Of a stretch of DNA of 64,000 nt, positions 24,152-64,000 are shown piece by piece. The DNA lies in contig JBFFSC010000001.1 of NCBI GenBank assembly GCA_041572615.1, positions 6,050 to 70,049 of the forward strand, given 5' to 3'. The stretch's first letter is position 1. Each line of letters opens with the position of its first letter. A program made the position numbers and the translations under genes. Under the pieces are notes generated by a model. It was not told the origin of the DNA and ran no database searches. It saw only the letters and a list, made by a program, of their open reading frames with translations. This stretch comes from Sulfurimonadaceae bacterium (GTDB lineage: Bacteria; Campylobacterota; Campylobacteria; Campylobacterales; Sulfurimonadaceae).

Positions 24152-25399
24152 TTATGCACCCAGAGAGACCTTGGCAAATTCGGTTGATGCCTGAATATTA
24201 GAAAGCATCATCTGTTCTAACTCCTGCGTATTCAAAGCGTGCTTTTCTACAAAGGCATCTATTTTCTTCGTTTCAAACTTCTCGATAGAAATGACGATAC
24301 TATAGAGTTCTCCCAAGATCCCATCTTGTTTGAACAGGGCATCTTTAACACGTTCTTCCACATAAAACTCATTAATGATGTCTTCCAAAGGCATATGCAA
24401 AAGGGTGTCCATAAGCGAGAAGACACCCACAAAATAGGCTTCACTCTGTTCTTGCATCGTACAGTTCTTCTTGACCATCTTGAGCAGTGAGACCATCAGG
24501 TCAGTACGGTGTTTAACCATCAGGATTAATGGGTCATCAAAACTTCCCTTGTTCGAGAGTGTTTTTGAGTATAGCAGCAGCATCAACCATTGGTTCAAGG
24601 AATTTCTTCCCAAAAGTGTAATAACCTGCTGAATTGAAGAGATAGGGCTTTTAAAATGAAAGGCTGCCGAGTTCATAAAACGTAACAACTGCAATGTGAG
24701 ACTTGGGCTTTGCTCAAATGACTCGACGATCTCACTGGTATCACCGCCTGTCTGTAAAAGATTGCAGAGTTTGAAAAGTGATGCCTGGTCTGCATCAAAC
24801 TTCTTGTTCTGAATGATCTTTGGTTCAGCGAAATAATAGCCCTGAAAGGCATCAAACTTCTGCTGTTTACATGTCTCAAATACAGATTCTGTCTCCACCT
24901 TGCTTGCAATAGCCTCTATCTCATGCATATGCAGTGTACGCACTATTTTCCCCATATGTTCCTGCTCAAAACTGGAAGTATCGACTTTACAGTAGCTAAG
25001 ATAGGGAAAAATCTTCTTATACTCGGAAAGGTGCCCATAATCTGATGCATCCAGGCAGAAACGGTAGCCTTTTTTATGTAAAACCTCTACACGCTCCACC
25101 GTAAGGTCATCCAGATTGCTACTGCTTGTGATTTCAAAGACAAATGTCTTGGAAGGAATAGTATCAACGATTTCATGACGCAGAAAACGGTCATCGATAT
25201 TGACAAATGCCAATGCATTGCCGACGACATTTTGAAGACCGGCCTGATTTAATACATTGACCAGAAGTGCTGCTGTTGCATGACGTTGATTTGCATAGGC
25301 TGCGCTACGTTCGCTATCACGGTACAACAGTTCATAGCCCATGATCTTCTGCTGTTTGTCTAAGATCGGTTGTCTGGCAAGGTAGAAATTTGTCGACAT
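24152..25399 (-). CDS. EAL + HDOD domain signalling protein (c-di-GMP phosphodiesterase-like)
   Basis: N-terminal LARQPILDKQQKIMGYELLYR (EAL-type start). C-terminal HDOD-like LLRFMNSAAFHFKSPISSIQQVITLLG. Confidence 0.8.
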   Translation of the reverse strand: MSTNFYLARQPILDKQQKIMGYELLYRDSERSAAYANQRHATAALLVNVLNQAGLQNVVGNALAFVNIDDRFLRHEIVDTIPSKTFVFEITSSSNLDDLTVERVEVLHKKGYRFCLDASDYGHLSEYKKIFPYLSYCKVDTSSFEQEHMGKIVRTLHMHEIEAIASKVETESVFETCKQQKFDAFQGYYFAEPKIIQNKKFDADQASLFKLCNLLQTGGDTSEIVESFEQSPSLTLQLLRFMNSAAFHFKSPISSIQQVITLLGRNSLNQWLMLLLYSKTLSNKGSFDDPLILMVKHRTDLMVSLLKMVKKNCTMQEQSEAYFVGVFSLMDTLLHMPLEDIINEFYVEERVKDALFKQDGILGELYSIVISIEKFETKKIDAFVEKHALNTQELEQMMLSNIQASTEFAKVSLGA

Positions 25400-26371: not shown

Positions 26372-26451
26372 CCTTTATGCATTAAATGAGTGTATTTTAG
26401 CAAAAAACACAAGTTCTCCATGTGTGTGAAGCATCTCTTTGCATTAGTATC

Positions 26452-26475
26452 TAACCGACAAATTAGGACTATTAA
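26452..26475 (+). promoter_or_regulatory. copy of conserved 24-nt box (TAACCGACAAATTAGGACTATTAA) upstream of the BLUF gene
   Basis: 19/24 identical to the copy at 54573. TATACT at 26493 follows after a 17-nt spacer. 66 nt before ATG 26541. Confidence 0.4.
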
Positions 26476-30231: not shown

Positions 30232-32172
30232 GTGAAAGACAACACAACGATTTTAACTGATGCTATCTTTGACAATGTCGACCATCTACTTATCGCTACA
30301 GACACAGAAGGTGTCATCACCAAGTTCAATAAAGCAGCAGAAAGATTCCTGGGCTATCAGGCCGAAGAACTTGTCGGCAGTATGACCCCTGCACTCTTTC
30401 ACCTTGAATCTGAGGTTGTTGAACGGGCACAACTCTTCTCCGCCGAGCTGGAACAAAATGTAGAGCCGGGATTTAAGGTCTTTGTCATCAAGACAGAGCT
30501 TGGGCTTCCCAATGAATATGAATGGACCTATATCACCAAAAGCGGTGAGCACAAACCCGTTCTTCTTTCTGTCACTGCCTTACGTGACGATAATGGCAAC
30601 ATTACAGGTTATATCGGTGTTGCCAAAGATATCTCAGAAAGCAAACGCATTGCCCAGGACCTTCACCTGAGCCAAAACAGACTCAACGAAGCCCAGCGTA
30701 TCGCAAACATAGGGAGCTGGTCCCTTTCAGCCCGATCCGGCCTTTTATTATGGTCTGATCAGATCTACAAGATCTTCGAGATCGACCCCAAGCATTTCAA
30801 ACCCTCCTATGAAGGCTTTCTAAACAGTATTCATCCTGATGACGTCGAAAAGGTCAACCAGGCCTTTAGTGCTTCTCTTGAGAACAAAACCTCTTATAAC
30901 ATCGAACATCGCCTTCTTATGAAAGACGGTCGTATCAAATATGTCATCGAACGCGGTGAAACCGTCTATTCCGATACAGGAGAAGCTCTACTGACACAGG
31001 GGACGGTTCAAGACATCACTGAACTTAAACTGGTCCAACAGAGCCTGATCGAAGCGAAAGAGGCAGCCGAGAATGCCAACCGCTCAAAGAGCCGTTTTCT
31101 GGCCAATATGAGCCATGAGATACGTACACCCCTAAATGGTATTATGGGCTTTATCGAATTACTTCAAAAAGAGGAGACCGATCCCAAGAAAAAAGATTAT
31201 CTTGATATCATCCACACCTCCTCAAAGTCCCTGCTTGTCGTGATCAATGATATTCTTGATCTCAGCAAGATCGAAGACGGGAGTATGAAAATCGAGCCTA
31301 CCGACTTCGATCTTCATCAACACCTTGAACAGCTGATCACTTTTTTTAAGTCCATCAGCGACTCAAAAGAGATTGATCTGCATTTTGAGTATCCAGAAAA
31401 GCTCCATTCCCATGTATATACCGACTCCTTGCGTTTAAAACAGATCCTTTCCAACCTGATCTCCAACGCTATAAAGTTCTCACCTGAGAACTCGACAATC
31501 ACAATCGACCTAAAACGAGAAGATGACCACCTTATCATAGCCGTAAAAGATGAAGGAATAGGCATCTCTGAAGAAGCACAAAAACGTATCTTCAATCCCT
31601 TTGAACAAGCCGAAGTATCTACCACAAGGAACTATGGAGGAACCGGTTTAGGGCTGAGTATCTCAAAAAAGCTTATCGAGCTGCTTGACGGAGAGATCTA
31701 CCTTGAAAGTGAACTTGGCAAAGGAAGTACTTTTTCTTTTTCCATCAAGGCGCCTGAAATCTGCACCCTGGAAAAACATGAACACGATGACGCCGTACCT
31801 GCACTTCAAGGGCATATCCTCGTTGCAGAAGACAACAAGACAAATCAGCTTCTTCTTACCCTCCTATTGGATGAGATGGGTCTGACCTACAGCCTCGTTG
31901 AAGATGGAAAGGAGGCCGTAGAAGCATTCAAACAATGCCCAGACTACAATCTCATATTAATGGATATCAATATGCCCAATATGAACGGCATTGAGGCAAC
32001 AGAACATATACGTCAATCAAACTATCCGCATAGGAACATACCAATTATCGCCTTGACCGCCAATGTAATGAAGGAGGATATCGATCACTACCTTGAATCA
32101 GGTATGAACGCGCATCTTTCAAAACCTATTGACAGTCACCTTTTGGCACAGGTGCTGACACAATATCTATAA
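30232..32172 (+). CDS. hybrid sensor histidine kinase (PAS-PAS-HisKA-HATPase-REC)
   Basis: GTG start after AAGAGG. Two PAS/PAC units. H-box FLANMSHEIRTPLNGI, G-boxes DEGIGI and GGTGLGLSISK, and a C-terminal REC (ILVAEDNKTNQ, LILMDINMP). Confidence 0.9.
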   Translation: MKDNTTILTDAIFDNVDHLLIATDTEGVITKFNKAAERFLGYQAEELVGSMTPALFHLESEVVERAQLFSAELEQNVEPGFKVFVIKTELGLPNEYEWTYITKSGEHKPVLLSVTALRDDNGNITGYIGVAKDISESKRIAQDLHLSQNRLNEAQRIANIGSWSLSARSGLLLWSDQIYKIFEIDPKHFKPSYEGFLNSIHPDDVEKVNQAFSASLENKTSYNIEHRLLMKDGRIKYVIERGETVYSDTGEALLTQGTVQDITELKLVQQSLIEAKEAAENANRSKSRFLANMSHEIRTPLNGIMGFIELLQKEETDPKKKDYLDIIHTSSKSLLVVINDILDLSKIEDGSMKIEPTDFDLHQHLEQLITFFKSISDSKEIDLHFEYPEKLHSHVYTDSLRLKQILSNLISNAIKFSPENSTITIDLKREDDHLIIAVKDEGIGISEEAQKRIFNPFEQAEVSTTRNYGGTGLGLSISKKLIELLDGEIYLESELGKGSTFSFSIKAPEICTLEKHEHDDAVPALQGHILVAEDNKTNQLLLTLLLDEMGLTYSLVEDGKEAVEAFKQCPDYNLILMDINMPNMNGIEATEHIRQSNYPHRNIPIIALTANVMKEDIDHYLESGMNAHLSKPIDSHLLAQVLTQYL

Positions 32173-51811: not shown

Positions 51812-51840
51812 TCCAACCAACTGACATTTTTCACCTACGA
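51812..51840 (+). promoter_or_regulatory. conserved box CCAACCAACTGACATTTTTCACCTACGAA upstream of thiD
   Basis: 26/29 identical to 61863-61891. TACAAT at 51858 follows after a 17-nt spacer. The box ends 49 nt before ATG 51889. Confidence 0.55.
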
Positions 51841-51888
51841 ACCAAATGCTGTTTTTCTTACAATCGTACTATCAATCAAGGAGTCATC

Positions 51889-52671
51889 ATGAAAGTAGTG
51901 TTGAGTATTGCCGGTTCAGATTCAAGCGGAGGTGCCGGGATTCAGGCAGATCTAAAGACCTTTGAAGCCTTTGGCGTCTTTGGTACGTCAGTGATCACTG
52001 TTTTGACTGCACAGAACACAGCTGGTGTGAGTGCGATTGAGAGTGTTTCTGCCGACTTTGTACGTGCGCAGATAAAAGCCGTACTTGAAGATTTTGATGT
52101 GGCCGCGATCAAGATCGGAATGCTCTACAGCATAGATGTCATGGAGGCAGTTAAAAGCCAGATTGCCAACTGTAACTGTCCAATAGTCTTGGATCCTGTC
52201 TTTATATCCAAGGCTGGTTCACCCTTGCTTCAGGACGATGCCGTAGAAAAGATGAAAGAACTTTTTTCATATGCAACGGTGATCACACCGAACCTTTTCG
52301 AAGCAAAGGCACTTTTTGGATATGACAAAGATGATGCCGCATCTGTTGAAACGGTTAAACAACTGAATACTCCTGTACTGATTAAAAACCAGGTTATTCA
52401 AGATACGGGCCAAAAGAGAAGTGTCGACCTGCTCTATGCGGGTGATGAAGAACAATGCTTCGAAACGGCACATATCAGGACAAATAACCTTCACGGTACA
52501 GGATGCTCTTTCTCAAGTGCAATAGCTGCCAACCTTGCCTTAGGCAAAAGACTTGATGAATCGATAGAGGTCGCAAAAAGATTTGTTACCCAGTCACTCG
52601 TGCATGCACCGTCAATCGGGCACGGACCGGGACCTATCAACCACAAACAAGGAGGAAAGGATGTCGCATAA
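51889..52671 (+). CDS. thiD: hydroxymethylpyrimidine/phosphomethylpyrimidine kinase
   Basis: [26 protein letters not shown], and [12 protein letters not shown] near the C-terminus. Confidence 0.9.
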
Positions 52672-53281
52672 ACTGCAGGGACTATATGCTATTACCGATG
52701 AAACACTCACGCCTGATCACAGCGTAGTGGAGCAAGTAAAGACTGCCCTTCAAGCCGGTGCCAATATCATCCAGTACCGCAACAAGACCGCAGAAGACTC
52801 TCAGGTCGAATCTGTATGCAGGGACCTATTGAGACTCTGTCATAATCACAAGGCCATTTTTATCATCGATGACAGAGCAGATCTCGCTCATAAGATAGGG
52901 GCAGACGGTTTACACATAGGCAAAGATGACACCTCACTCTCAGATGCTAGAAAGATATTCTCTGAAGGTATCATCGGCGTATCTTGTTATGGGAGTATCC
53001 GTAAAGCTAAGGAAGCAGAAGAAGAAGGAGCCGATTATGTAGCCTTTGGTTCTTTCTTCCCCTCACCGACAAAGCCAAAATCAGGTGTTATCTCTTTAAA
53101 GGTGCTTCAGAAGGCCAAAGAAGCGTTGAATATCCCTGTATGTGCCATCGGAGGGATTAATCGTGACAATATCCATGAAGTAGCCGCATACCGGCCTGAC
53201 ATGATTAGTATTGTCAATGACATTTTCAATGGTGATATCACCCATAATATAACTCAACTCAAACAAGGAATGAAGATATGA
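52661..53281 (+). CDS. thiE: thiamine-phosphate synthase
   Basis: Start [13 protein letters not shown] follows GGAGG. IQYRNK, GADGLHIG, GGI motifs. 11-nt overlap with thiD. Confidence 0.9.
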   Translation: MSHKLQGLYAITDETLTPDHSVVEQVKTALQAGANIIQYRNKTAEDSQVESVCRDLLRLCHNHKAIFIIDDRADLAHKIGADGLHIGKDDTSLSDARKIFSEGIIGVSCYGSIRKAKEAEEEGADYVAFGSFFPSPTKPKSGVISLKVLQKAKEALNIPVCAIGGINRDNIHEVAAYRPDMISIVNDIFNGDITHNITQLKQGMKI

Positions 53282-54156
53282 AAATTAAATTAGCTATTGA
53301 ATGGTTTTTAAACCCGGATCACCTGCCATTTATCGTAGGAATACGGGAAGGTTTTTTCAAAGAGAAAGGTCTAGACCTTGAGATCATCGAACCGACAGAA
53401 CATTATGACGGTCTGGATGAGCTCTGCCAAGGCAATATACATTTTGCGACCAATGAACCCTTGCACCTGATTGAACAGTTTGATGAGAACTTTTTGACAA
53501 TGGGAACCTATTTTGAGACTAAAGGAGGTGTATTACTGAAAAAATCATCTTATGAAAAACTCATCAACGGTGACTCGATCATTGTGACTTCTCCTGTCTC
53601 AAATGAAAAGACAGACAATATCGCCTTTGAGATCATACGCCGTTTCTATGCCAAAGAAGGTGTAATGGTAAAACGTGAACAGGTCAAGTTCGTTGCAAAT
53701 GGCTTTGAACACCTTAAATATATGAAAGAAGGTGCTGATGCCGGCTGGCTTTATTTTTATAATTTCGAAGGTATAGAAGCACAACATGAAGGCATGGAAG
53801 TACTCTACCTTGATGCGGAAAACGTCGGCTTTGCAAACTTCAGTGCCCTGGACATCTTTACTAACAAAAGCTGGTATAAGGAAAACACACAAACATGCGA
53901 CCATTTTCTCGATGCAGTAAGGGAGTCGACCACATGGATGAGTAAACATCCTGATGATGCTATGCAACACTATTATGATTACACAAAAGAAGAGAAGAGC
54001 GATCTGATGGATGACATCCTCACTGCAACGATGGAATGTTTTCATTCTGATTTTAATTCACTAGCCGCAGACCAGGAACCGATACTGGAGTTTTTTACCG
54101 AGATAGGGATAACCCAACTGCCTTATAATGATTTCAAAAAGGCATTTTTGGCTTAA
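53278..54156 (+). CDS. cytoplasmic NMT1/THI5-like protein (possible HMP-P synthase or pyrimidine-binding protein)
   Basis: No signal peptide. N-terminal LNPDHLPFIVGIREGFFKEKGLDLEIIEPT resembles yeast THI5 [34 protein letters not shown]. ATGA overlap with thiE. Confidence 0.6.
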   Translation: MKIKLAIEWFLNPDHLPFIVGIREGFFKEKGLDLEIIEPTEHYDGLDELCQGNIHFATNEPLHLIEQFDENFLTMGTYFETKGGVLLKKSSYEKLINGDSIIVTSPVSNEKTDNIAFEIIRRFYAKEGVMVKREQVKFVANGFEHLKYMKEGADAGWLYFYNFEGIEAQHEGMEVLYLDAENVGFANFSALDIFTNKSWYKENTQTCDHFLDAVRESTTWMSKHPDDAMQHYYDYTKEEKSDLMDDILTATMECFHSDFNSLAADQEPILEFFTEIGITQLPYNDFKKAFLA

Positions 54157-54157
54157 T

Positions 54158-54517
54158 ATGAAAGGTTTACTTTTAGTCGCACACGGCAGCCGAAGAGATG
54201 CATCAAACAAAGAGTTTGAGACAATGGTCTCTTCTCTGAACAAAAGGCTTCATAAGGTTTATTCTAAGGTAAATACATCGTTTTTGGAGTTATCTTCACC
54301 AAGTATCGATGAAGCGCTGCATGCAATGATAGCTGAAGGTATAGACGATATACAGGTGTATCCTTTCTTTCTTAACCCCGGAAGACATGTACATCATGAT
54401 ATCCCTGAAAAGATAAAAGCATTCAAAACACTACACCCTGAAGTAAGCTTTGATATTCTGCCTCATTTTGGAAGCTCTGAACATATTATCTCCCTAATAG
54501 TAAATGATTTGACCTAA
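54158..54517 (+). CDS. small CbiX-type (sirohydrochlorin chelatase-like) protein
   Basis: MKGLLLVAHGSRRD and PFFLNPGRHVHHDIP are typical of CbiX(S). 119 aa. Confidence 0.6.
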   Translation: MKGLLLVAHGSRRDASNKEFETMVSSLNKRLHKVYSKVNTSFLELSSPSIDEALHAMIAEGIDDIQVYPFFLNPGRHVHHDIPEKIKAFKTLHPEVSFDILPHFGSSEHIISLIVNDLT

Positions 54518-54572
54518 GTACTTGTCTAAACCCGGCATCTACTCACTACATGTTTTTACGCTATAAAAGAAT

Positions 54573-54596
54573 GAACTGACAAATTATCACTACTAA
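54573..54596 (+). promoter_or_regulatory. copy of conserved 24-nt box (GAACTGACAAATTATCACTACTAA) upstream of lipocalin gene 1
   Basis: 16/24 identical to the 51817 copy and 19/24 to the 26452 copy. GATGAT at 54614 (17-nt spacer) or GATAAT at 54617. 41 nt before ATG 54637. Confidence 0.4.
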
Positions 54597-54636: not shown

Positions 54637-55158
54637 ATGTACCGAGTATTTGTTTTTTTACTGCTTCTTACCAGCATTACAGGATGTTCCACCCCTTATC
54701 TCCCGTTGGATACCGTCAAAAAAGTTGACCTGGAACAATACTTGGGCACATGGTATGAAATCGCCCGATATGAGCACTATTTTGAAAAAGGATGCCGTGA
54801 TGTCTCTGCGACCTATACACGTAATGAAGATGGCAGTATACGGGTCATCAATCAATGCACCAAAGAAGACGGAGAAACGACAGAAGCTGTTGGCGTAGCC
54901 TATGCAACCGACAATAGTTACAGTAAACTCAAAGTAAGTTTTTTCAGACCTTTCTATGGAAACTATTGGATTATTATGCTTGATCCGGACTATGACTATG
55001 CTGTCGTAGGTGATCCCAGTCGTCAATACCTTTGGATACTCTCACGTACACCCCAACTTGATAACGATATCAAAGAAATGATACTAAAAAGACTTCCACA
55101 GATGGGATATGCAGTAGAACCTTTGATGTGGACAAAACAAGGAATGGGAGATGTTTGA
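54637..55158 (+). CDS. blc: bacterial lipocalin (Blc-type outer-membrane lipoprotein)
   Basis: Lipobox LTSITGCS. Lipocalin motif YLGTWYEIARY. Confidence 0.85.
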   Translation: MYRVFVFLLLLTSITGCSTPYLPLDTVKKVDLEQYLGTWYEIARYEHYFEKGCRDVSATYTRNEDGSIRVINQCTKEDGETTEAVGVAYATDNSYSKLKVSFFRPFYGNYWIIMLDPDYDYAVVGDPSRQYLWILSRTPQLDNDIKEMILKRLPQMGYAVEPLMWTKQGMGDV

Positions 55159-55618
55159 AAAAACAGTTCACATGACATTCAGTACTGAGATTGGGGTCAA
55201 TGCTAAAACACTCTTTGATTTTCATGGCGATACCGACAATCTGCCAAAAATAACCCCACCATGGATAACAGCAAGGCTTGTTTCACTTAAACTCCCTCTT
55301 TATGAAGGCAGAGAACTTGAACTTGATATCAGCCGTTTTGGTTTGACACAACGATGGAAGATACAAATTGCGGAGCTTAACCCGTTTGAACTTATCTGTG
55401 ACAAAGCACTCAAAAGTCCTTTTTCATCTTTTAGTCACCACCACAGGTTTAAAATGATCGGCGAGAACAGGACTCTGCTCTGTGATGAACTCGAGTTCAG
55501 TTTACCTTTCTATCCCTTCAGCCTCATTGCCATGCCTTTTATAAAAAGAGACATCCGAATGATGTTTGAATATAGACATCTAAAAACTAAAACTTTATTG
55601 GAGAACAACAATGTTTAA
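55151..55618 (+). CDS. SRPBCC-fold (START/Bet v1-like) ligand-binding protein
   Basis: 155 aa. Size and the pattern TLFDFHGDTDNLPKITPPW resemble COG4276-type SRPBCC proteins. 8-nt overlap with blc. Confidence 0.5.
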   Translation: MFEKTVHMTFSTEIGVNAKTLFDFHGDTDNLPKITPPWITARLVSLKLPLYEGRELELDISRFGLTQRWKIQIAELNPFELICDKALKSPFSSFSHHHRFKMIGENRTLLCDELEFSLPFYPFSLIAMPFIKRDIRMMFEYRHLKTKTLLENNNV

Positions 55619-56135
55619 CACCTCACTGCACCTTGACGAGAAGTGCCATGCACAACCCCGAATTGCCGCTTTATTGACCTGTGGAAGCAATATAATGCCC
55701 CTTGCCTGGCATATGCCCGTATCCAAAGAACCATTTAGATATGCCGTCGCTATACGAAGCGAGAACCATACACATGATTTGATCAAAAAGAACAGAGAGT
55801 TTGCCCTGAATTTTTTGGATATTTCCTATCAGGATGCCTATCAGAAGTCTGGTGATATTCATGGGGGAAGTGTCGACAAGTTCGAACTCAGCGGGCTTCA
55901 TCAGAAAGATGCACTAAGTATTGAAAGCACTCTCATCGAGGAGGCTTATATGATCTATGAATGTATACTCGTTGATATCATCAGCTATGGCGATCACGAT
56001 ATATTTGTCGCTGATGTGAACCTAATCTTGAACAAAGAGACTAAAGAGGTAAAACCCACTCTGTTTTTGGGTAAAGGATATTATGATACTTTACTCGGTG
56101 ATCCTATACGACTGAAAAGGAATACTGATGAATAA
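55611..56135 (+). CDS. flavin reductase-like (FMN-binding split-barrel) protein
   Basis: [23 protein letters not shown] ... REFALNFL, typical of the flavin reductase domain. 8-nt overlap with the upstream gene. Confidence 0.7.
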
Positions 56136-57336
56136 ATACATCCCTCATGCTTTTGATTTTGATCCTGATGAACGTGGTCATTTTGGAAGGTTCGGTGGAC
56201 GTTTTGTACCGGAAACACTTATGCCTGCCCTTATTGAACTTGATGCATTTTATGCTTCCTTGCGCTTTGACCAAGATTTCTGGTCTGAAGTAAATGCCTA
56301 TTTTAAAGATTATGTCGGAAGACCTTCACCTCTATACAAAGCGCAAAGCCTATCTGATGAACTTAATGCACATATTTATCTAAAGCGTGAAGACCTTAAT
56401 CATACCGGTGCACATAAGGTGAACAATACAATCGTGCAAGGACTGCTTGCCAAAAAAATGGGCAAGACAAAGGTCATCGCTGAGACCGGAGCCGGACAAC
56501 ACGGTGTTGCTACAGCAACCATCGCTGCTTTGATGGGCCTTGAATGTGAAATCTTCATGGGAGAGAAGGATGTTGAACGGCAACAACTCAATGTCTTTCG
56601 CATGAAGCTTTTAGGCGCCAAAGTCCATGCTGTTTCATCAGGAAGCCGTACACTTAAAGATGCGATGAATGAAGCCATACGCCATTGGGTCACCAATGCA
56701 CGCGACACCTTTTACATCATCGGTACTGCAGCTGGTCCTCACCCCTACCCATTGATGGTTCGTGACTTCCAGGCCATTATCAGTTTTGAAGCAAAAGAGC
56801 AGATCCTTCAACAAGAAGGTTCCCTTCCAGACTATGTCATTGCATGTATAGGAGGAGGAAGTAATGCGCTTGGGATGTTTGCCCATTTTATCAATGAAGA
56901 ATCAACTCAATGTATTGGTATAGAAGCCGGAGGCCATGGACTTGAAAGTGGAAAGCATGGGGCCAGTCTTGCCCTTGGAAGACCAGGGATACTACATGGA
57001 CAGATGAGTTACCTTTTGCAAAGCAATGACGGCCAGATTGACGAAGCACACTCAATATCTGCAGGTCTAGACTATCCTGGAATTGGCCCTGAACATTCAT
57101 TCTTGATGGAGCAAGGAAAAGTAATTTATGATAGTATTAACGATGATGAAGCTATGGATGCATTTGTATGGTTAAGTCGTGCAGAGGGCATTGTTCCTGC
57201 TTTTGAGAGTGCCCATGCGATTGCCTATCTGAAAAAAATGCCTAGAGAGAATATTCAGAATAAAAAAATCATTATCAGCCTTTCAGGACGAGGTGACAAA
57301 GACATGATCCAAGCAATGGAGATATTGAAACTATGA
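56128..57336 (+). CDS. trpB: tryptophan synthase beta chain (TrpB1 type), with no adjacent trpA
   Basis: [45 protein letters not shown] and [10 protein letters not shown] are near-collinear with E. coli TrpB as I recall it. Confidence 0.9.
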
Positions 57337-58796
57337 AAACATCACAAAAAAAACAGACTATACTATTAACGGGAGCAACGGGATATATTGGACGTCGTCT
57401 AAAACACAAGCTGTTAGAGGATAACACTAACCGAATCAAACTACTTGTTCGACATGCCAATTCACTGAGCGATAGTGTACGTCAGCATACTGAAATCATT
57501 GAAGGCAGTACCTTTGATAAAGACTCCCTAGATAAAGCACTGCAAGGTGTCGACGTAGCCTATTATCTCATCCACTCTCTTGGGAATGATGATTATGCAG
57601 AGCTGGATAGAAAAAGTGCAATGAACTTTCGTGAAGCAGCTATAAAGGCTGGTGTCAAGAAGATTATCTACCTGGGAGGACTTGGTGTTATTGACAAAGA
57701 CACAAGTGAACATCTCCTCAGCCGCATAGAAACCGGCCAGATACTTTCTCAAAGACCTGATAAGATTGACGTCATCTGGTTTCGTGCGGGTGTCATCATC
57801 GGTTCAGGCAGTGCCAGTTTTGAGATCATTCGTAATCTCATCCAAAAACTCCCAGTCATGATCACACCTAAATGGGTACGTACAAAAGCTCAGCCCATTG
57901 GCGTTGAAGATGTTATCGATTACCTTGAAAGTGCAAAAGAAGAGACACTAAGCGGGACTCATATCGTAGACATAGGTTCAGAAAAGATGTGTTATCAAGA
58001 AATGATGGTCGAATGTGCCAAAGTCATGGGACTTAAACGTCTCATTATCCCTGTTCCATTTCTTTCTGTAGGTCTATCATCCTACTGGCTGAATATCTTC
58101 ACACCTGTGCCTTTCAATGTCGCTGCTTCCCTTATCAAAGGAGTCCGTTGTGAAGTCCTTGTTCAAAACGACAACGCCAAAAGGCTATTTCCTCATATTC
58201 ATCCCTCTTCATTCAAACAAAGTATTGCTAATGCGTTATCTGAAGCGGAAGAGAATCAGGTATTAAGCCGATGGAGTGATAGAGGTGATGGTGTTTGGGA
58301 TACCGATCATAAGTTCTCAATCGCACAAGCTATCTTTATTGATAGACAAGTGCTCCCTTTAGGTAATCTTTCTAAACATGATGTCCATCAGAGCTACATA
58401 TGTATCGGTGGTCAGAATGGATGGTTCTCCTATGACTGGTTATGGGGGATAAGAGGGTTCTTTGATAAACTTTCAGGAGGTGCTGGACTCAACCGGGGAA
58501 GACGATCGCAGCACGAGCTTCGCATTGGTGACAGTCTGGACTTTTGGAAAGTCGTTGATATACAAGATGACGAACGACTGCTTCTGTTTGCACAGATGCG
58601 TCTGCCCGGAAAGGCCTGGTTGGAGTTTAAGATACACGAGGGAAACCTTGTTCAAAGTGCCTACTTTCTGCCTAAAGGAGTATTTGGAAGACTTTACTGG
58701 TACGCACTTGTACCGCTTCATTATCTTGTTTTCAAAGATATGATCCGATCTATTATAAGACAGGCAAAAGACATAAGAGACAAAAGAATGTCTTAA
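57333..58796 (+). CDS. NAD(P)-binding (NmrA/SDR-like) + DUF2867 protein, YbjT-like
   Basis: N-terminal [13 protein letters not shown] Rossmann motif. C-terminal half of about 170 aa with the size and position of DUF2867. 487 aa. Confidence 0.7.
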
Positions 58797-58820
58797 CCTA
58801 GTCTCGTTAGCAACGAAAGC

Positions 58821-58860
58821 CAATCCACCAATCCACCAATCCACCAATCGACAAATCCAC
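58821..58860 (+). repeat. tandem octamer array: CAATCCAC x3, then CAATCGAC, AAATCCAC
   Basis: Read directly: caatccac caatccac caatccac caatcgac aaatccac. Intergenic, and it overlaps the box copy at 58845. Confidence 0.9.
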
Positions 58861-58868
58861 ACTACAAA
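58845..58868 (+). promoter_or_regulatory. copy of conserved 24-nt box (CAATCGACAAATCCACACTACAAA) upstream of the small ORF/SDR operon
   Basis: 17/24 identical to the 54573 copy. TAGACT at 58886 follows after a 17-nt spacer. 47 nt before ATG 58915. Confidence 0.35.
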
Positions 58869-58914
58869 CATCCTTTATATTACTATAGACTGTGTAAAGA
58901 GTAGGAGGATGTTT

Positions 58915-59004
58915 ATGAACCATTTTATAGAAGAACTGAATATCAAGTTAGTCCTTGTGCCTTGTGCATTTGCACTATTCTTCCTGATCCGGGTATGGAG
59001 TTAG
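58915..59004 (+). CDS. candidate 29-aa hydrophobic micro-protein (MNHFIEELNIKLVLVPCAFALFFLIRVWS)
   Basis: Not in the ORF track (too short). AGGAGG at 58903-58908 lies 6 nt before the ATG. The stop is 8 nt before the SDR start. One predicted TM helix. Confidence 0.3.
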   Translation: MNHFIEELNIKLVLVPCAFALFFLIRVWS

Positions 59005-59012
59005 TAAATTAC

Positions 59013-59765
59013 ATGAGCCAACGTATTTGGATGGTAGGCGGCAGTAGCGGTATTGGTCTTGAACTTGTCAAACTCTGGCTTATCAATGGTGAAAGGGTAA
59101 TCGTATCTTCACGTAATGCAACCGGCACTGAGATGCTTAAACTACTGGTAGATGCCTATCCTGAAAGACTAAAACTCATTGACTTGGATATCTCAGATAC
59201 CAATACGATCAGTGAGACCATCCAAGAAGTATGGTCACTGTATGAAGGGCTTGATCTTTGGTTTTACAATGCCGGGGCCTATGAGACCATGAAAATACAC
59301 GAATGGAAGTTCGAGCACTTCAAGCAGATGAATATGGTCAATTACCTTGGTGTAGTCAATCTTATGACAGAACTGGCGCCACTCTTTAAACGGCAATATC
59401 ATGGCCGCTGGATCCTTAATATCAGTCTCTCATCTTACCTCGGTCTTCCCTACGGAGGTGGATACAGTGCACCCAAGGCTGCCCTTCTTAATCTGGCCGA
59501 GTCGATTCAACCTGAACTGATACGCGACAACATACAACTTCAGGTCATCAACCACGGTTTTGTAAAAACGCGCCTGACGGCTAAAAATGATTTTGACATG
59601 CCCCAATTGATGGAACCTGAGATAGCAGCAAGAAAGATCTTTGAAGGCTTGAAAAAGCCCTATCGCTTTGAGATAAGATTTCCGTTTGGGCTTTCTTTGT
59701 TCTTGCGAATCTTACGACTGCTTCCTTACAAGGTCTCCCTGGCATTGACTGCAAAGGCCTTGTGA
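59013..59765 (+). CDS. short-chain dehydrogenase/reductase (SDR)
   Basis: Start MSQRIWMVGGSSGIGLEL (TGxxxGxG-type). NAG and the YSAPKAAL catalytic motif. The upstream ORF extension (58962) lacks an RBS. Confidence 0.8.
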   Translation: MSQRIWMVGGSSGIGLELVKLWLINGERVIVSSRNATGTEMLKLLVDAYPERLKLIDLDISDTNTISETIQEVWSLYEGLDLWFYNAGAYETMKIHEWKFEHFKQMNMVNYLGVVNLMTELAPLFKRQYHGRWILNISLSSYLGLPYGGGYSAPKAALLNLAESIQPELIRDNIQLQVINHGFVKTRLTAKNDFDMPQLMEPEIAARKIFEGLKKPYRFEIRFPFGLSLFLRILRLLPYKVSLALTAKAL

Positions 59766-60196
59766 TGAAGATTGAACAAACAGCAAGGGCCTATGCTGAT
59801 TTCTTTGAAAGTATCTCCAAAGAGACATCGATGGAGTCCTACGCCAAACTTTTCGATGTAAACGTCTGCTTTGAAGATCCTTTTCAAAAAGTCATCGGCA
59901 TAGAAAAGGTCTACCATGTCTTCGAGCATATGTTTACAACCCTCTATGACCCCCGTTTTATCGTCAATGAGATAGTGTGTGATAAACAGTGCGCTTATTT
60001 GCGCTGGACCTTCTCGTATCAGCGTAGCCCCAAACTCAATATAGAAAAGTTCACCGGTGTCAGTCGGGTACAGTTTCTTGAGACAGGCAAGGTGCTTTCA
60101 CATGTCGATTATTGGGATGCCGCCGAGAACATCTATGAAAAAGTTCCTATTCTTGGTTTTGTCTTGCGTCTGATCAAACAAAGGATCAAAGCATGA
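59762..60196 (+). CDS. NTF2-like (SnoaL-fold) protein
   Basis: 144 aa. Size and pattern (YADFFESI ... CAYLRWTFSY) fit an NTF2-like fold. 4-nt overlap with the SDR gene. Confidence 0.55.
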   Translation: MMKIEQTARAYADFFESISKETSMESYAKLFDVNVCFEDPFQKVIGIEKVYHVFEHMFTTLYDPRFIVNEIVCDKQCAYLRWTFSYQRSPKLNIEKFTGVSRVQFLETGKVLSHVDYWDAAENIYEKVPILGFVLRLIKQRIKA

Positions 60197-61434
60197 AACT
60201 GGCATCGTCAACCCTCTTTTACTACGCACTTCCTGCATTTTCACTGGCGATGCTTGGTCTTCCTCTTTACATCTATCTTCCTACATTTTACTCCGAATAT
60301 GTCGGTCTAGGTACCTTTGAGATCGGTATAGTCCTGTTTTTGGCACGTGGGCTGGACCTGATACTTGATCCCCTCGTTGGCTCGTTAAGTGACAAATATG
60401 CAAAACGTAAGTTGATGATGTTTATCGGTATGATTATCCTTCTTGCCGGTTTTTTGGCACTAAGTTACCCACTGCCGTCTTGGATATGGCTGCTTGGTTT
60501 CTCATTTATCGCCTACACCGGATGGAGCCTGATGAGTATTCCTTACCTCGCTTTGAGTGCAGAGTTAAGCCGAGACTATCATGACAACACCCGATTGGCT
60601 TCCAGTCGCGAGTTGCTAACGATATGTGGTTTAATCTTGGCCCTTGTCATTCCTTATGCCCTTGATATTGCAGACAATGCTCAAGCGACAATAGAAATGA
60701 TGTTTTTCATCGTCGGGATATCTCTGCCTGTGCTGTTTTTACTGTTTAATCATCATATAAAAGAGCCAAAACACACATTACATTCGCTTAATTTTTTTAG
60801 CGGACTTAAACAACTCTGGTTACATGCACCTGATGCAAGATCACTATTCTTAGCCTTTTTATTTAACAGTCTTGCCAATGCTCTACCTGCAACACTTTTT
60901 CTTTTCTTTGTCTCTCTCATTTTACAAACGCCTGATCAGACCGGTCTTTTTTTGCTCTTGTACTTTATCTCGGGCTTGATCGCGCTGCCACTATGGAGTT
61001 CGTTTGCAAAAAGATGGGGTAAAAAGAGAGTATGGGTTGCCTCCATGACTCTGGCATCTGTTGCCTTTAGTTTTGTCCTTTTATTAGGCCCTGGAGATGA
61101 ACTGTATTTTATGTTCATTACGCTCGTATCGGGGTTTAGTCTTGGTGCCGACATGGCTCTTCCGGCAGGGATACAAGCCGATATAGCCCAAAAAATAGAA
61201 ACGAACGGGAAACGACTTACCGGAGTATTGTTTGGATTTTGGGCCATGTTGACAAAACTCTCACTCGCTTTGGCTGTGGGCATATCTTTTGGACTATTGG
61301 GATTAAGCGGGTTTGAACCTGAATCACCAAGTTCGAGTTCTCTTATCATGCTTTCCATACTCTATGGTATGGCCCCGGTCATCTTTAAAATACTGGCTAT
61401 CTACTTTATATCCAGGTATGACGATGCGATATAG
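60193..61434 (+). CDS. MFS transporter, glycoside-pentoside-hexuronide (GPH) type
   Basis: 12 TM helices. ARGLDLILDPLVGSLSDKYAKRK matches the GPH loop signature (R..D...DP..G). Confidence 0.75.
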   Translation: MKLASSTLFYYALPAFSLAMLGLPLYIYLPTFYSEYVGLGTFEIGIVLFLARGLDLILDPLVGSLSDKYAKRKLMMFIGMIILLAGFLALSYPLPSWIWLLGFSFIAYTGWSLMSIPYLALSAELSRDYHDNTRLASSRELLTICGLILALVIPYALDIADNAQATIEMMFFIVGISLPVLFLLFNHHIKEPKHTLHSLNFFSGLKQLWLHAPDARSLFLAFLFNSLANALPATLFLFFVSLILQTPDQTGLFLLLYFISGLIALPLWSSFAKRWGKKRVWVASMTLASVAFSFVLLLGPGDELYFMFITLVSGFSLGADMALPAGIQADIAQKIETNGKRLTGVLFGFWAMLTKLSLALAVGISFGLLGLSGFEPESPSSSSLIMLSILYGMAPVIFKILAIYFISRYDDAI

Positions 61435-61861
61435 TCCAGTCATTTGGTTCTTGTGTCTGTTTGTCGTATTGATTGGGCTTGAAAACATTTACCCATTGCC
61501 TTTTGCGCTCTCTTTTTCAAAGATTTATGGATTATTATGTCTGTTTTTTGCCTTGATCATCGTCATATGGACCAAATACCTTTACATGCGTCACAACACC
61601 TCTTATGACCCAAATAAAAAACCTGTTGTATTGATAACAGACAGTATCTATGCGATCAGTCGCAATCCAATATACATCGCACTTGTACTGGCTTTCTTTG
61701 GAGTTTCACTTATACTCTCTTTAAGCTATTCGCTTCCGGGGACACTATCTCTGTATCTTATTCTTTCACGGCATATCATCCCTCATGAAGAAAAAGAACT
61801 TGAAATGATTTTCAAAGACCGCTATCTTGAGTATAAATCCTCTACTCCAAAATGGGTTTAA
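61418..61861 (+). CDS. ICMT/PEMT-like membrane methyltransferase family protein
   Basis: Four to five TM helices. YAISRNPIYIALVLAFFG (RNP.Y motif). Start ATG 61418 or 61424, overlapping the MFS gene end. Confidence 0.6.
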   Translation: MTMRYSPVIWFLCLFVVLIGLENIYPLPFALSFSKIYGLLCLFFALIIVIWTKYLYMRHNTSYDPNKKPVVLITDSIYAISRNPIYIALVLAFFGVSLILSLSYSLPGTLSLYLILSRHIIPHEEKELEMIFKDRYLEYKSSTPKWV

Positions 61862-61862
61862 A

Positions 61863-61891
61863 CCAATCAACTGACATATTTGACCTACGAA
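61863..61891 (+). promoter_or_regulatory. conserved box CCAATCAACTGACATATTTGACCTACGAA upstream of lipocalin gene 2
   Basis: 26/29 identical to 51812-51840. TATACT at 61909 follows after a 17-nt spacer. The box ends 50 nt before ATG 61941. Confidence 0.55.
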
Positions 61892-61940
61892 TGTTCTTTG
61901 GCTTGTCTTATACTTAAACTATATGAGTTAGGAGTACACC

Positions 61941-62459
61941 ATGCGTATGATCTTCATTATCATGTTTTTCATATTCACTGCCTTGGCTGAGACTTTGCAA
62001 CCCGTTTCATATGTTGATTCGAAGCGCTTTAGCGGCCTATGGTATGAGATCGCACGTACTTACAACGATTATGAAAAAGATTGTGTGGCTGCGACTGTCG
62101 AATACGTCCTGGAAGACGACAATCGCTATCGCGTCAACAATCGCTGTTTTGACACGACAATGACAGGAGACCTTATACTTTATGAAGGTACAGCAGAACC
62201 TCTTGAAGGAGATTCTATGCATCAGATGGAGATGACATATTTTTGGATTTTCAGCCAAGACTACAACGTACTCTACCTGGATGAAGACTATACCACAGCC
62301 ATCATAAGCGATAAGGACTTTGAACAATTGTGGGTGATGCACAGAAAGCCGGAGATATCCCAAATCAAATTAGCAAAGTTACTTGCTCTGCTAGAGAAAA
62401 ACATGGATCTTGATAGGCTCATCTATACCCCTCAAGACCCTCAAGGAAGGTACAAATGA
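61941..62459 (+). CDS. lipocalin family protein (second Blc paralogue, no lipobox Cys)
   Basis: Signal peptide MRMIFIIMFFIFTALA. FSGLWYEIARTY lipocalin motif. Confidence 0.8.
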   Translation: MRMIFIIMFFIFTALAETLQPVSYVDSKRFSGLWYEIARTYNDYEKDCVAATVEYVLEDDNRYRVNNRCFDTTMTGDLILYEGTAEPLEGDSMHQMEMTYFWIFSQDYNVLYLDEDYTTAIISDKDFEQLWVMHRKPEISQIKLAKLLALLEKNMDLDRLIYTPQDPQGRYK

Positions 62460-63691
62460 AAATCGCGGTATTAGGTGCCGGCATCAGTGGGTTGGGCAGC
62501 GCTTACCTGCTTAGCCAAAAACATGAAGTCGATCTCTATGAGAAAGAGAGTCGTCTAGGTGGACACGCACGAACGACGATGGTCCATGAAAAAGAGAAAA
62601 GCTTTGGTGTTGACACTGGTTTTTTAGTCTTCAACCATGAGACCTATCCCCTTTTGACAAGACTCTTTGAACAACTCGATGTCAAAATAGAAAATAGTGA
62701 CATGAGTTTTGGGTTTTGGGATGAACAGAGCAATTCAGCCTATAATGGAAGCTCACTGGGCGGGATGTTCTTGCAAAAGAAAAACCTTTTTTCTCTCGCG
62801 CATTACAAGATGATCGCAGACATCATGCGCTTCAACAAAGAAGCCAACGATCATGTCGATAATAACAGCCGTGAACTTAATCAATCCCTGGGAGAGTATC
62901 TGGAATCCTATTCCGAAGTCTTTAAACAACGCTACATCTTGCCTATGGGAGCTGCAATCTGGTCAACGCCGAGTGAAAAGATGCATGACTTCCCTGCACG
63001 CACATTTTTACAGTTCTTCAAGAATCATGGCCTTCTAGGTGTAACAACACAACATCAATGGCTAACCGTAAGCGGTGGTTCGATCAATTATGTCAATGCC
63101 ATATCTCAAAAAATCTCAGGAGAGATTATACTTAACAGTCCCGTACGTTCACTCTCCCGTCACAAAGACGGTGTCACACTTCATATGAATGACGGGACGG
63201 CAAAAGAATACGACAAAGTCGTTATGGCGATGCATGCTCCTGATGCGCTGACGCTTCTAGACGATGCCACTGAAACAGAGAAAGAACTTCTCTCCTGTTT
63301 TGCCTATAAAGAGAATCAGGCAGTACTTCATAATGACACCAATGTCCTTTATCCTGACAAAAAAAGTTATGCAGCATGGAACTATAAGACCGGAGGGAAA
63401 GACAATGCCGTCACACTTTCATATTGGATCAACATCCTACAAAACCTGGTTACAGACAAAGAGTATTTTGTCTCCTTGAATGAGACGGCAACAATCAATG
63501 ATATCATCGAAGAGATCACCTACGAACACCCGCAGTTTGATGCGGATGCGATAGAGGCACAGTCACGTCATCATGAAATAGACGGTGTTATACACACCCA
63601 TTATGCAGGAGCCTATTGGCGTTACGGCTTTCATGAAGACGGACTATGGAGTGCAGAGCGTATTGCCAATAAGATGGAGTGTGCATTATGA
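62456..63691 (+). CDS. NAD/FAD-dependent oxidoreductase (amine-oxidase/desaturase-like)
   Basis: KIAVLGAGISGLGSAYLL ... LYEKESRLGGHA dinucleotide-binding motif. 4-nt overlaps on both sides. Confidence 0.8.
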   Translation: MKIAVLGAGISGLGSAYLLSQKHEVDLYEKESRLGGHARTTMVHEKEKSFGVDTGFLVFNHETYPLLTRLFEQLDVKIENSDMSFGFWDEQSNSAYNGSSLGGMFLQKKNLFSLAHYKMIADIMRFNKEANDHVDNNSRELNQSLGEYLESYSEVFKQRYILPMGAAIWSTPSEKMHDFPARTFLQFFKNHGLLGVTTQHQWLTVSGGSINYVNAISQKISGEIILNSPVRSLSRHKDGVTLHMNDGTAKEYDKVVMAMHAPDALTLLDDATETEKELLSCFAYKENQAVLHNDTNVLYPDKKSYAAWNYKTGGKDNAVTLSYWINILQNLVTDKEYFVSLNETATINDIIEEITYEHPQFDADAIEAQSRHHEIDGVIHTHYAGAYWRYGFHEDGLWSAERIANKMECAL

Positions 63692-64000
63692 GTCATAGAT
63701 TTTTTGAGGGGAGCATCTACCATAAACGTTTTCATCCAAAAACTCATGAGTTCACCTACCCTTTTTATCTTTTGGACATCAGTATCCCGTTGATAGACAA
63801 TCTAAAAAACGCCCTTTTCTCACTGGGTGGTTTCAACCTCTTTTCATTCAGAGCCACAGACCATTTTGGATCGAGTAAAGACTTCACACACAACGTCAAA
63901 GAGCTACTGGATACATTCAACCTTCAAGAAACACAAGAGATGCGGTTTATCACTTTGCCCAGAGTCTTTAATTTTGTGTTCAATCCGATCAGTGTACTGG
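63688..64000 (+). CDS. DUF1365 family protein, N-terminal part (runs off the right edge)
   Basis: My own translation: MSHRFFEGSIYHKRFHPKTHEFTYPFYLLDI...RVFNFVFNPISVL. The H.R..P..H.F.Y and FNP.S patterns are typical of DUF1365. The ATG overlaps the upstream stop (ATGA). Confidence 0.7.
   Translation, partial: MSHRFFEGSIYHKRFHPKTHEFTYPFYLLDISIPLIDNLKNALFSLGGFNLFSFRATDHFGSSKDFTHNVKELLDTFNLQETQEMRFITLPRVFNFVFNPISVL

Follow-up and report, generated by a model that had tools for sequence, protein, structure and literature searches.

A furan-fatty-acid-type gene set behind a shared promoter box in a Sulfurimonadaceae bacterium, with a LytTR two-component system as candidate regulator

INTRODUCTION

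A photolyase together with a furan-fatty-acid-type gene set is a recurrent bacterial answer to damage by light and singlet oxygen, and the control circuits known for it are of two kinds, ChrR-sigmaE and MerR/LitR. Such a gene set lies at the end of a 64,000-nucleotide (nt) stretch of DNA, hereafter the window, from a Sulfurimonadaceae bacterium (GenBank assembly GCA_041572615.1, contig JBFFSC010000001.1), where a first-pass annotation, made from the letters alone, had seen two copies of a short box and neither of the known regulators. Which circuit controls this set, what does it respond to, and what might its enzymes make? The explanation that we consider best as a whole, and probable, is that the region, in this member of the Campylobacterales, serves as the lipid-modifying arm of a regulon for photo-oxidative stress, under the control of a LytTR regulator. 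The genes make up a system of a known type, and what appears to be new, as read from sequence, is this variant of the control circuit. Together with about 80 related loci, the locus points to a third circuit, found in Campylobacterota and based on a LytTR two-component system, and thanks to the sharply defined box the regulon can be tested directly, in bacteria that are commonly seen as dark-living sulfur oxidizers. Full-text searches of the literature returned no paper on the present system in Sulfurimonas or Sulfurovum, nor any that ties photolyase or light regulons to LytTR regulators. What is added here to the first-pass annotation is the completion of the cluster past the window edge, comparators linked to ChrR and MerR, a candidate for the regulator and evidence that it is conserved, the ruling out of an extracytoplasmic function (ECF) sigma factor, and a conserved micro-protein.

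The window covers positions 6050-70049 of a 76.5-kb contig (C1) within a 2.03-Mb assembly that is 76% complete. The contig runs 6.5 kb beyond the window, and genes located there are placed in window-equivalent coordinates. The GC content of the region is like that of its surroundings.

RESULTS AND DISCUSSION

Gene content and order of the locus

The run of genes named by the first-pass annotation, from a micro-ORF to DUF1365, was borne out by open reading frame (ORF) listing and Pfam searches, including membership in the amine-oxidase and DUF1365 families. Extending the sequence past position 64000 revealed the cyclopropane fatty acid (CFA) synthase gene that it had expected beyond the edge: a CMAS gene stands right after DUF1365 and is followed by DUF3833. 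The genes of the two operons are as follows.

58915-59001, plus strand: micro-ORF of 28 codons, encoding a 28-amino-acid (aa) single-pass hydrophobic peptide, MNHFIEELNIKLVLVPCAFALFFLIRVWS; AGGAGG lies 6 nt upstream
59013-59765, plus strand: SDR (Pfam adh_short, 105.8 bits); ATG at 59013 is the most likely start, with an alternative at 58995
59762-60196, plus strand: SnoaL_2/NTF2-like protein (Pfam SnoaL_2, 39.9 bits)
60193-61434, plus strand: MFS_2 (GPH-type) transporter (Pfam MFS_2, 218 bits)
61424-61861, plus strand: PEMT/ICMT-like membrane methyltransferase (Pfam PEMT, 41.1 bits)
61941-62459, plus strand: Blc-type lipocalin with an N-terminal signal sequence (Pfam Lipocalin_2, 103.7 bits)
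62456-63691, plus strand: UfaD-like FAD oxidoreductase of the amine-oxidase superfamily (Pfam Amino_oxidase, 78 bits; NAD_binding_8, 52 bits)
63679-64000, plus strand: UfaO-like DUF1365 protein, its first 107 codons inside the window and the gene end at window-equivalent 64428
64431-65657 (window-equivalent), plus strand: CFA/UfaM-like methylase of the CMAS family (CMAS, 307 bits)
65654-66184 (window-equivalent), plus strand: DUF3833 lipoprotein, after the CMAS gene

The UfaD-like gene overlaps the DUF1365 gene by 13 nt, and its product was 40-45% identical to the flavoprotein whose gene immediately precedes that for DUF1365 in Paracoccus, Pseudoalteromonas and Azoarcus; its best solved relative is LkcE. 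The full-length DUF1365 protein has 249 aa and matched Pfam DUF1365 with 186.5 bits. The CMAS gene, the sole true one of its family in the assembly, realistically begins at the ATG that adjoins the DUF1365 stop codon, for a product of 408 aa. In the upstream operon, the SDR shared 30-35% identity with homologues in the Azoarcus, Pseudoalteromonas and Paracoccus clusters, the SnoaL_2 protein 30% with the NTF2-family protein of the Azoarcus cluster, and the MFS_2 protein 34% with the MFS transporter of that cluster. The PEMT-like gene probably starts with an ATG, at 61418 or 61424; from the TTG given in the ORF list, at 61313, it would overlap the MFS gene by 121 nt.

The first-pass annotation had matched the run to a conserved proteobacterial locus, and the match was borne out: the same set occurs with an ECF sigma factor, ChrR and photolyase in Pseudoalteromonas and with a divergent MerR gene in Azoarcus. 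Our comparators were annotated plasmid and chromid records, and seven to eight window proteins had homologues in the Azoarcus and Pseudoalteromonas clusters, at 21-45% identity. On p1 of Pseudoalteromonas shioyasakiensis the cluster starts with genes for an ECF sigma factor, a ChrR anti-sigma-E factor, DUF523/DUF1722, phrB, NTF2 and SDR and continues with an FAD oxidoreductase, DUF1365, a CFA-family methylase, DUF2878, a chalcone-isomerase-like protein and DUF3833. In Azoarcus sp. KH32C (pAZKH), a divergent MerR gene faces an FAD oxidoreductase, DUF1365, a CFA-family methylase, a chalcone-isomerase-like protein, MFS, DUF3833, SDR and NTF2.

A box shared by six operons

Both operons of the locus are preceded by a 26-nt box, AYS-AAYYGACAWAWW-N4-CTACNAA, whose 3' end lies exactly 17 nt ahead of a TAnAAT -10 hexamer. 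The genome contains six copies, all on contig C1; every one precedes a plus-strand operon, at a distance of 63-88 nt from its first start codon.

26450-26475, plus strand: Box 1 (25.4 bits), preceding a BLUF / SDR-DUF1731 / DUF1722 / photolyase operon
51816-51841, plus strand: Box 6 (43.1 bits), preceding a thiD / THI5-NMT1 / CbiX operon
54571-54596, plus strand: Box 2 (32.1 bits), preceding a lipocalin / SRPBCC / flavin-reductase / TrpB-like / NmrA-DUF2867 operon
58843-58868, plus strand: Box 3, ACC-AATCGACAAATCCACACTACAAA (35.1 bits), at the -35 position of the promoter of the micro-ORF/SDR operon
58886-58891, plus strand: -10 hexamer TAGACT, 17 nt after the end of Box 3
61866-61891, plus strand: Box 4, ATC-AACTGACATATTTGACCTACGAA (37.3 bits), promoter of the lipocalin/UfaD operon
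61909-61914, plus strand: -10 hexamer TATACT, 17 nt after the end of Box 4
66226 (window-equivalent), plus strand: box ahead of a flavoprotein / kinase / LytTR operon, past the window edge

The two copies of the first-pass annotation are thus real (58846-58868 and 61869-61891), and the former starts 69 nt ahead of the start codon of the micro-ORF. Counted in the same way, the other four lie at 26453, 51819, 54574 and window-equivalent 66226. The second copy is, as had been proposed, an internal promoter before the lipocalin, and a box was likewise found ahead of the orthologous lipocalin in all six other loci in which this junction is visible. In one relative (L007) the matrix described below found a 19-bit variant before ufaD with its -10 hexamer at the correct distance; a stricter exact pattern missed both this locus and another (L003).

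Three independent lines of evidence rule out a chance origin of the box. The scoring matrix spanned 49 nt and was built from sites of other genomes only. Applied to this genome, it gave the six sites 25-43 bits, and of the 4.03 million positions none besides these exceeded 12.3; a degenerate form of the box pattern gave five genome matches versus none for the reversed-pattern control. A logo of 96 nonredundant sites, from 80 related loci plus this genome, revealed conservation in columns that had played no part in site selection: positions 41-46 read TAnAAT (T 0.91, A 0.99, A 0.77, A 0.81 and T 1.00), and the A-Y-S extension 5' of the box, equally unused, was conserved as well. Downstream of TAnAAT the logo was rich first in A and then, over the ribosome-binding zone, in purines, up to the start codon; start codons stand 63-78 nt from where the box begins. 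Since TAnAAT follows the end of the box at exactly 17 nt, the box sits at the -35 position. The promoters are of the sigma-70 type with no recognizable -35 hexamer of their own, and they were missed by a standard sigma-70 consensus scan, which also returned no convincing terminators between the operons. The rigid phasing of box and -10 hexamer is as one would expect for a class II activator site, and the box is almost certainly the cis-regulatory site of a single regulon.

At Box 3, an 8-nt tandem repeat, CCAATCCA, present in 5.1 copies at 58820-58860 on the plus strand (Tandem Repeats Finder score 68), reaches into the 5' half of the box. Its unit resembles the 5' flank of the box itself (ACCAATCGACA; ACCAATCG), and it could be a slipped-strand expansion or a source of extra half-sites.

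An improbable reading: a diverged ChrR/sigmaE-like system

The first-pass annotation had noted neither ChrR nor RpoE in the window, and the observation extends to the genome: no ECF sigma factor was found in this 76%-complete genome, where the sole Sigma70_r2 match was FliA in a flagellar cluster, and no ChrR, where the only Cupin_7 match was a secreted 147-aa protein lacking an anti-sigma domain. The incompleteness of the assembly, in which RpoD itself was not found, leaves room for reading the box as the promoter of an ECF-type sigma factor that happens to be missing, that is, for a diverged ChrR/sigmaE-like system. The same gene set is indeed the sigmaE-ChrR regulon of other proteobacteria, and the box begins with an AAC-like element. 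Against this stand the canonical sigma-70 -10 hexamer 17 nt after the box and the sigma factors of relatives that carry the box: a genome that is 99% complete and has the full cluster (G026) and a closed genome with boxes by the kinase operon (G033) encode RpoD only, and two others (G003 and G014) RpoD and FliA only. Using the sigmaE promoter pattern from Vibrio cholerae (PMC5241685), a search for TGATC-N16-19-CGTA across the 64-kb window gave one match, inside a coding region, versus 1.66 expected by chance. With box-carrying complete relatives devoid of an ECF sigma factor, a fixed sigma-70 -10 hexamer and the sigmaE pattern at chance level, we ruled out the ECF promoter reading of the box; a missing ECF system is largely refuted and, as an explanation, very improbable.

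The functional content is shared with the ChrR-sigmaE regulon of Rhodobacter sphaeroides, Caulobacter and V. cholerae, of which the P. shioyasakiensis cluster is an annotated example, and covers DUF1722-photolyase, NTF2, SDR, the flavoprotein, DUF1365, a CFA-family methylase and DUF3833 as well as glutathione peroxidase (in relatives) and the placement of the regulator genes inside their own regulon. In R. sphaeroides, the core regulon consists of rpoE-chrR, photolyase with a CFA-like gene, and RSP1091-1087 (PMC3546557). What differs is the control: sigma-70 promoters with TAnAAT and an activator-type box take the place of TGATC-N18-CGTAT, and the candidate sensor is a membrane histidine kinase instead of ChrR, the zinc anti-sigma factor (ASD plus cupin) that accompanies a group-11 ECF sigma factor.

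A flavoprotein, a membrane kinase and a LytTR regulator

The first-pass annotation had suggested that the same regulon is here wired to an undescribed regulator. This suggestion gains support from a gene trio just outside the window, which supplies a candidate in a LytS-type kinase and a LytTR response regulator.

66295-67716 (window-equivalent), plus strand: CrtD-like flavoprotein, 2.3 kb past the window, after an intergenic gap with the box
67709-68719 (window-equivalent), plus strand: LytS-type histidine kinase (PF06580 His_kinase, 81 bits)
68700-69401 (window-equivalent), plus strand: REC-LytTR response regulator (Response_reg, 90.5 bits; LytTR, 70 bits)

The three genes overlap one another. 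The kinase has four predicted transmembrane helices within its first ~140 residues, nearly free of loops, with the PF06580 dimerization domain right after them; four helices with almost no loops between them make it an intramembrane-sensing kinase. The regulator has its acceptor Asp in FLDINMP and the conserved Lys, and its best NCBIfam model was BtsR, at 127 bits and under the cut-off of 246. The flavoprotein matched CrtD, CrtI and carotenoid-isomerase models over its full length (178 bits), far below their cut-offs, and its solved relatives are CrtD and CrtI. A role as protoporphyrinogen oxidase, considered given that hemH precedes the trio in 40 of 68 loci, was unsupported, as models of that enzyme matched only the N-terminal dinucleotide fold.

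An alignment of three kinase orthologues identified 80 loci, in metagenome-assembled genomes labeled Sulfurimonadaceae, Sulfurovum, Sulfurimonas, Sulfuricurvum and Arcobacteraceae. The flavoprotein gene directly precedes the kinase gene in 70 of 72 loci, and the LytTR regulator gene follows it in 79 of 80. A box scoring above 14 bits stands ahead of the first gene of the trio operon in 47 of 68 loci, with weaker variants in several others, and a simple matrix counted 102 boxes in the 1.1 Mb of the 80 loci, 94 of them on the operon strand. Clustering of all ORFs in these loci revealed no other conserved DNA-binding regulator, and the present genome encodes exactly one LytTR protein. Among 41 relatives, at least three boxes per genome were found in 5 of 10 kinase-positive genomes versus none of 31 kinase-negative ones, and the kinase was present in 8 of 13 photolyase-positive versus 2 of 28 photolyase-negative genomes. 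From this co-occurrence and from its position behind its own box, the LytTR regulator is the likely binder that we would predict for the box.

Several observations weigh against this assignment. Five genomes of the same genus have photolyase and lack the kinase. In another relative (G012), a 31-bit box precedes DUF1722-photolyase (contig C37; box at 4922 of L093; also L098), and no orthologue of the kinase or the regulator was found; this genome is 99% complete by markers and split into 300 contigs, and the contig stops 0.6 kb beyond the last island gene, so that the case may reflect a gap in the assembly or else a genuine exception to the proposed link between regulator and box. Characterized LytTR sites, such as those of AgrA, BtsR and YpdB, are paired 9-10-nt direct repeats about 21 nt apart from center to center. 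The present box departs from this classical pair: it forms one unit of 26 nt, in which the most that can be seen of a repeat is kACnAA, offset by 13 nt. Finally, since Campylobacterota promoters generally have no -35 element, a site at this position could also be the operator of a repressor. Covariation between regulator residues and the box variants GACA and GCCA was also considered and dropped, both variants occurring within single genomes.

Measured against known LytS/LytTR systems, the trio shares with LytSR, BtsSR/YehUT, YpdAB and AgrCA a PF06580 kinase behind a purely membrane-embedded sensor, a REC plus LytTR regulator, and its own promoter as a (here putative) target. It differs from them in having four transmembrane helices and no 5TMR-LYT domain, in the translational coupling to a CrtD/CrtI-like flavoprotein, and in a putative site that overlaps -35 with fixed phasing and yet contains no 9-12-9 direct-repeat pair. 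Its putative regulon, with photolyase, ferrochelatase, lipid modification and thiamine genes, is unlike any described LytTR regulon.

The same conservation data bear on a different reading, namely, that the box is bound by a transcription factor encoded elsewhere, for instance, a MerR protein cotranscribed with a second BLUF gene, the LytTR system then being merely another target. The genome does encode such an operon, with MerR (114 aa) and a second, short BLUF protein (134 aa) as a BluR/BluF-like pair (C43:9767-10564, minus strand). MerR/LitR-type control of the same gene set is seen in Azoarcus, the strong box of G012 comes with neither a detectable kinase nor a regulator, and the box is unlike classical LytTR repeat pairs. 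MerR dimers, however, bind palindromes within a 19- to 20-nt spacer, and the box is asymmetric and located at -35, with a normal spacer of 17 nt. No other regulator family was found to be conserved in the 80 loci, and the genomes with multiple boxes are exactly those that have the kinase. In one relative lacking kinase and regulator (G015), moreover, the photolyase operon is free of the box and the lipocalin box is degraded. We regard a binder encoded elsewhere as unlikely, though less so than a missing sigma factor.

LitR/MerR-type light regulons are found in Pseudomonas and Burkholderia. They resemble the present system in placing the same lipid-modification set under a dedicated local regulator and in its link to photolyase in those organisms. 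The present cluster differs from them in having no adjoining MerR gene, an asymmetric box, and a promoter spacer of 17 nt in place of the long MerR-type one. Pfam searches revealed no MerR gene near the cluster on contig C1; two small ones lie on contigs C7 and C43. No box was found near the BLUF/MerR pair of C43, which might be a separate light switch or an upstream light sensor.

Signal and sensing

Returning to the LytTR regulator as the predicted binder, the regulon signal points to light because photolyase and BLUF genes share the box, and from gene content we judge light or singlet oxygen to be the probable signal. In the mechanism that we propose, light and O2 would act through endogenous sensitizers (porphyrins or flavins) to produce a membrane-borne signal; the intramembrane kinase, possibly together with the cotranslated flavoprotein, would sense this signal and phosphorylate the regulator at Asp52; and the regulator would bind the box as a class II activator, switching on six operons, its own included. 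The features of kinase and flavoprotein suggest, by inference, a lipid- or porphyrin-related membrane signal. There is precedent for lipid-derived signaling in R. sphaeroides, where full activation of sigmaE by singlet oxygen needs UfaM and UfaD.

The kinase is offered as a candidate membrane sensor for photo-oxidative stress. A more tentative and rather doubtful extension is that the CrtD-like flavoprotein and the four-helix kinase, perhaps with the ~30-aa micro-protein, form a new type of photo-oxidative sensor for singlet oxygen or a porphyrin- or lipid-derived cue, in which the flavoprotein would make or pick up a signal borne by the membrane, to be read by the kinase. If true, this sensor would add to ChrR-sigmaE and LitR/CarH a third, independent way of governing the same light-stress regulon, and it would appear to be widespread in chemolithotrophic Sulfurimonas, Sulfurovum and Sulfuricurvum.

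What the lipid module might make

The roles that the first-pass annotation had given for UfaD, UfaO and UfaM agree with the literature. In R. sphaeroides, UfaM (RSP2144) methylates cis-vaccenate, the flavoprotein UfaD (RSP1091) makes a 10,12-diene, and UfaO (RSP1090), a DUF1365 protein of 250 aa, forms 9M5-FuFA using O2 (PMC7380195). In Rhodopseudomonas palustris, the three genes (RPA2569-2571), in the order ufaD-ufaO-ufaM, suffice for furan fatty acid synthesis (PMC7380195). The present locus has the R. palustris order, with a flavoprotein gene overlapping and directly upstream of that for a DUF1365 protein of ~250 aa, followed by the CMAS methylase. Further likenesses to the Ufa pathway are an SDR nearby and a gene of ~180 aa after the methylase (RSP1088 has 186 aa and RSP1087 245 aa), and the set is coregulated with photolyase, as in R. 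sphaeroides. Unlike the Ufa systems, it is not under sigmaE/ChrR control, it includes a lipocalin, MFS_2, PEMT-like, SnoaL and micro-protein genes as extras, and it belongs to a nonphototrophic member of the Campylobacterales.

By homology with the enzymes of R. sphaeroides and R. palustris, the methylase would convert cis-vaccenoyl chains to 11-methyl-12-trans-18:1, the UfaD-like enzyme would desaturate this to the 10,12-diene, and the UfaO-like enzyme would insert O2 to give a methylated furan fatty acid, a quencher of singlet oxygen and radicals; the other genes would be lipid-binding, transport and redox accessories. On this analogy we somewhat favor a furan fatty acid as the product of the UfaD-, UfaO- and CFA-like genes, and furan or methyl-branched fatty acids may, by the same suggestion, occur in Campylobacterota.

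A competing account holds that no furan fatty acids are made, that the methylase is an ordinary cyclopropane or methyl-branch synthase, that the UfaD-like and DUF1365 pair, along with the SDR, NTF2, MFS and PEMT-like proteins, modifies a different membrane lipid or repairs oxidized lipids, and that the signal is perhaps oxygen or general oxidative stress. Three observations favor it and count against a furan product. The best NCBIfam models for the CMAS protein were cyclopropane synthases, every score falling under its cut-off, and product specificity is unreadable from such scores. The DUF1365 protein is only 21-34% identical to its proteobacterial homologues. R. sphaeroides does not need the CFA-like gene RSP1089, which lies directly after its ufaO, to make furan fatty acids, UfaM being encoded elsewhere, and no role is known for RSP1087-1089 (PMC7380195). 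Because RSP1089 occupies the same position, position alone does not make the present methylase a UfaM. As for the signal, the regulon includes glutathione peroxidase, ferrochelatase and cofactor-synthesis genes. On the other side, the triad of flavoprotein, DUF1365 and CMAS genes in this very order is the one that suffices in R. palustris, the CMAS gene is the only one in the assembly, and the box shared with photolyase and BLUF genes speaks for light. We hold this account to be possible, though less likely than not.

Whatever its product, the module is an optional arm of a wider regulon, since only about 8 of the 80 kinase loci contain UfaD-UfaO-CFA-DUF3833, in every case immediately before the kinase operon, and DUF1365 was detected in only 3 of the 41 relatives.

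Micro-peptides behind the box

Homologous or similar single-pass membrane peptides of 29-33 aa are the first cistron after the box in about 12 other loci. Examples are MNRFIDELQVKLLVLPFGLALLLLLYVWDKG in L009 (~6472-6567) and a peptide ending in ...LNFIWNGSF in Sulfuricurvum; the further loci are L010, L058/L059, L064, L067, L070, L074, L076-L078 and L080. The genes downstream of these box-driven micro-peptides vary and include SDR, SDR-DUF1731, hemH or the flavoprotein. By analogy with MgrB and PhoQ, the micro-peptides could be feedback modulators of the intramembrane kinase.

Wider content of the regulon

Across the loci, genes found after boxes include hemH, DUF1722-photolyase, lipocalins, SDR-DUF1731, thiD/THI5/thiE and glutathione peroxidase, and also a SOUL-like protein, pdxH, the lipocalin-UfaD operon (all six visible junctions) and small membrane peptides. 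Ferrochelatase, genes related to thiamine and pyridoxal phosphate (PLP), and the conserved micro-protein thereby become linked to the probable light response.

In the window, the genome's top-scoring box (43 bits) belongs to a thiamine-related operon (51819-54517) with thiD, a 232-aa gene, THI5/NMT1 and CbiX. With thiD, THI5, thiE and pdxH behind boxes in other genomes too, replacement of light-labile cofactors seems to be part of the regulon. The adjoining operon (54637-58796) encodes a Blc lipocalin, an SRPBCC/polyketide-cyclase-like protein, a flavin reductase, a PLP-dependent TrpB-like enzyme and NmrA-DUF2867; the TrpB-like enzyme is an orphan and is 82-85% identical across genera.

In the 40 of 68 related loci mentioned above, hemH heads the box-driven flavoprotein/kinase/LytTR operon (e.g., L009, 7498-11600, among L008-L087; see also L003, 3618-4556), and it is not part of this operon in the present genome. 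The link suggests control of protoporphyrin, a photosensitizer, as part of the response.

A hybrid PAS kinase encoded after the photolyase operon (30232-32172) was ruled out as a LOV light sensor, as it has no NCRFL-type LOV cysteine motif. A GGDEF protein of ~389 aa lies near the kinase operon in 25 of the 80 loci (e.g., L044, 901-2070, minus strand), and an EAL-HDOD protein is encoded near the BLUF operon of the window (24152-25399); these neighbors hint at an output through cyclic di-GMP.

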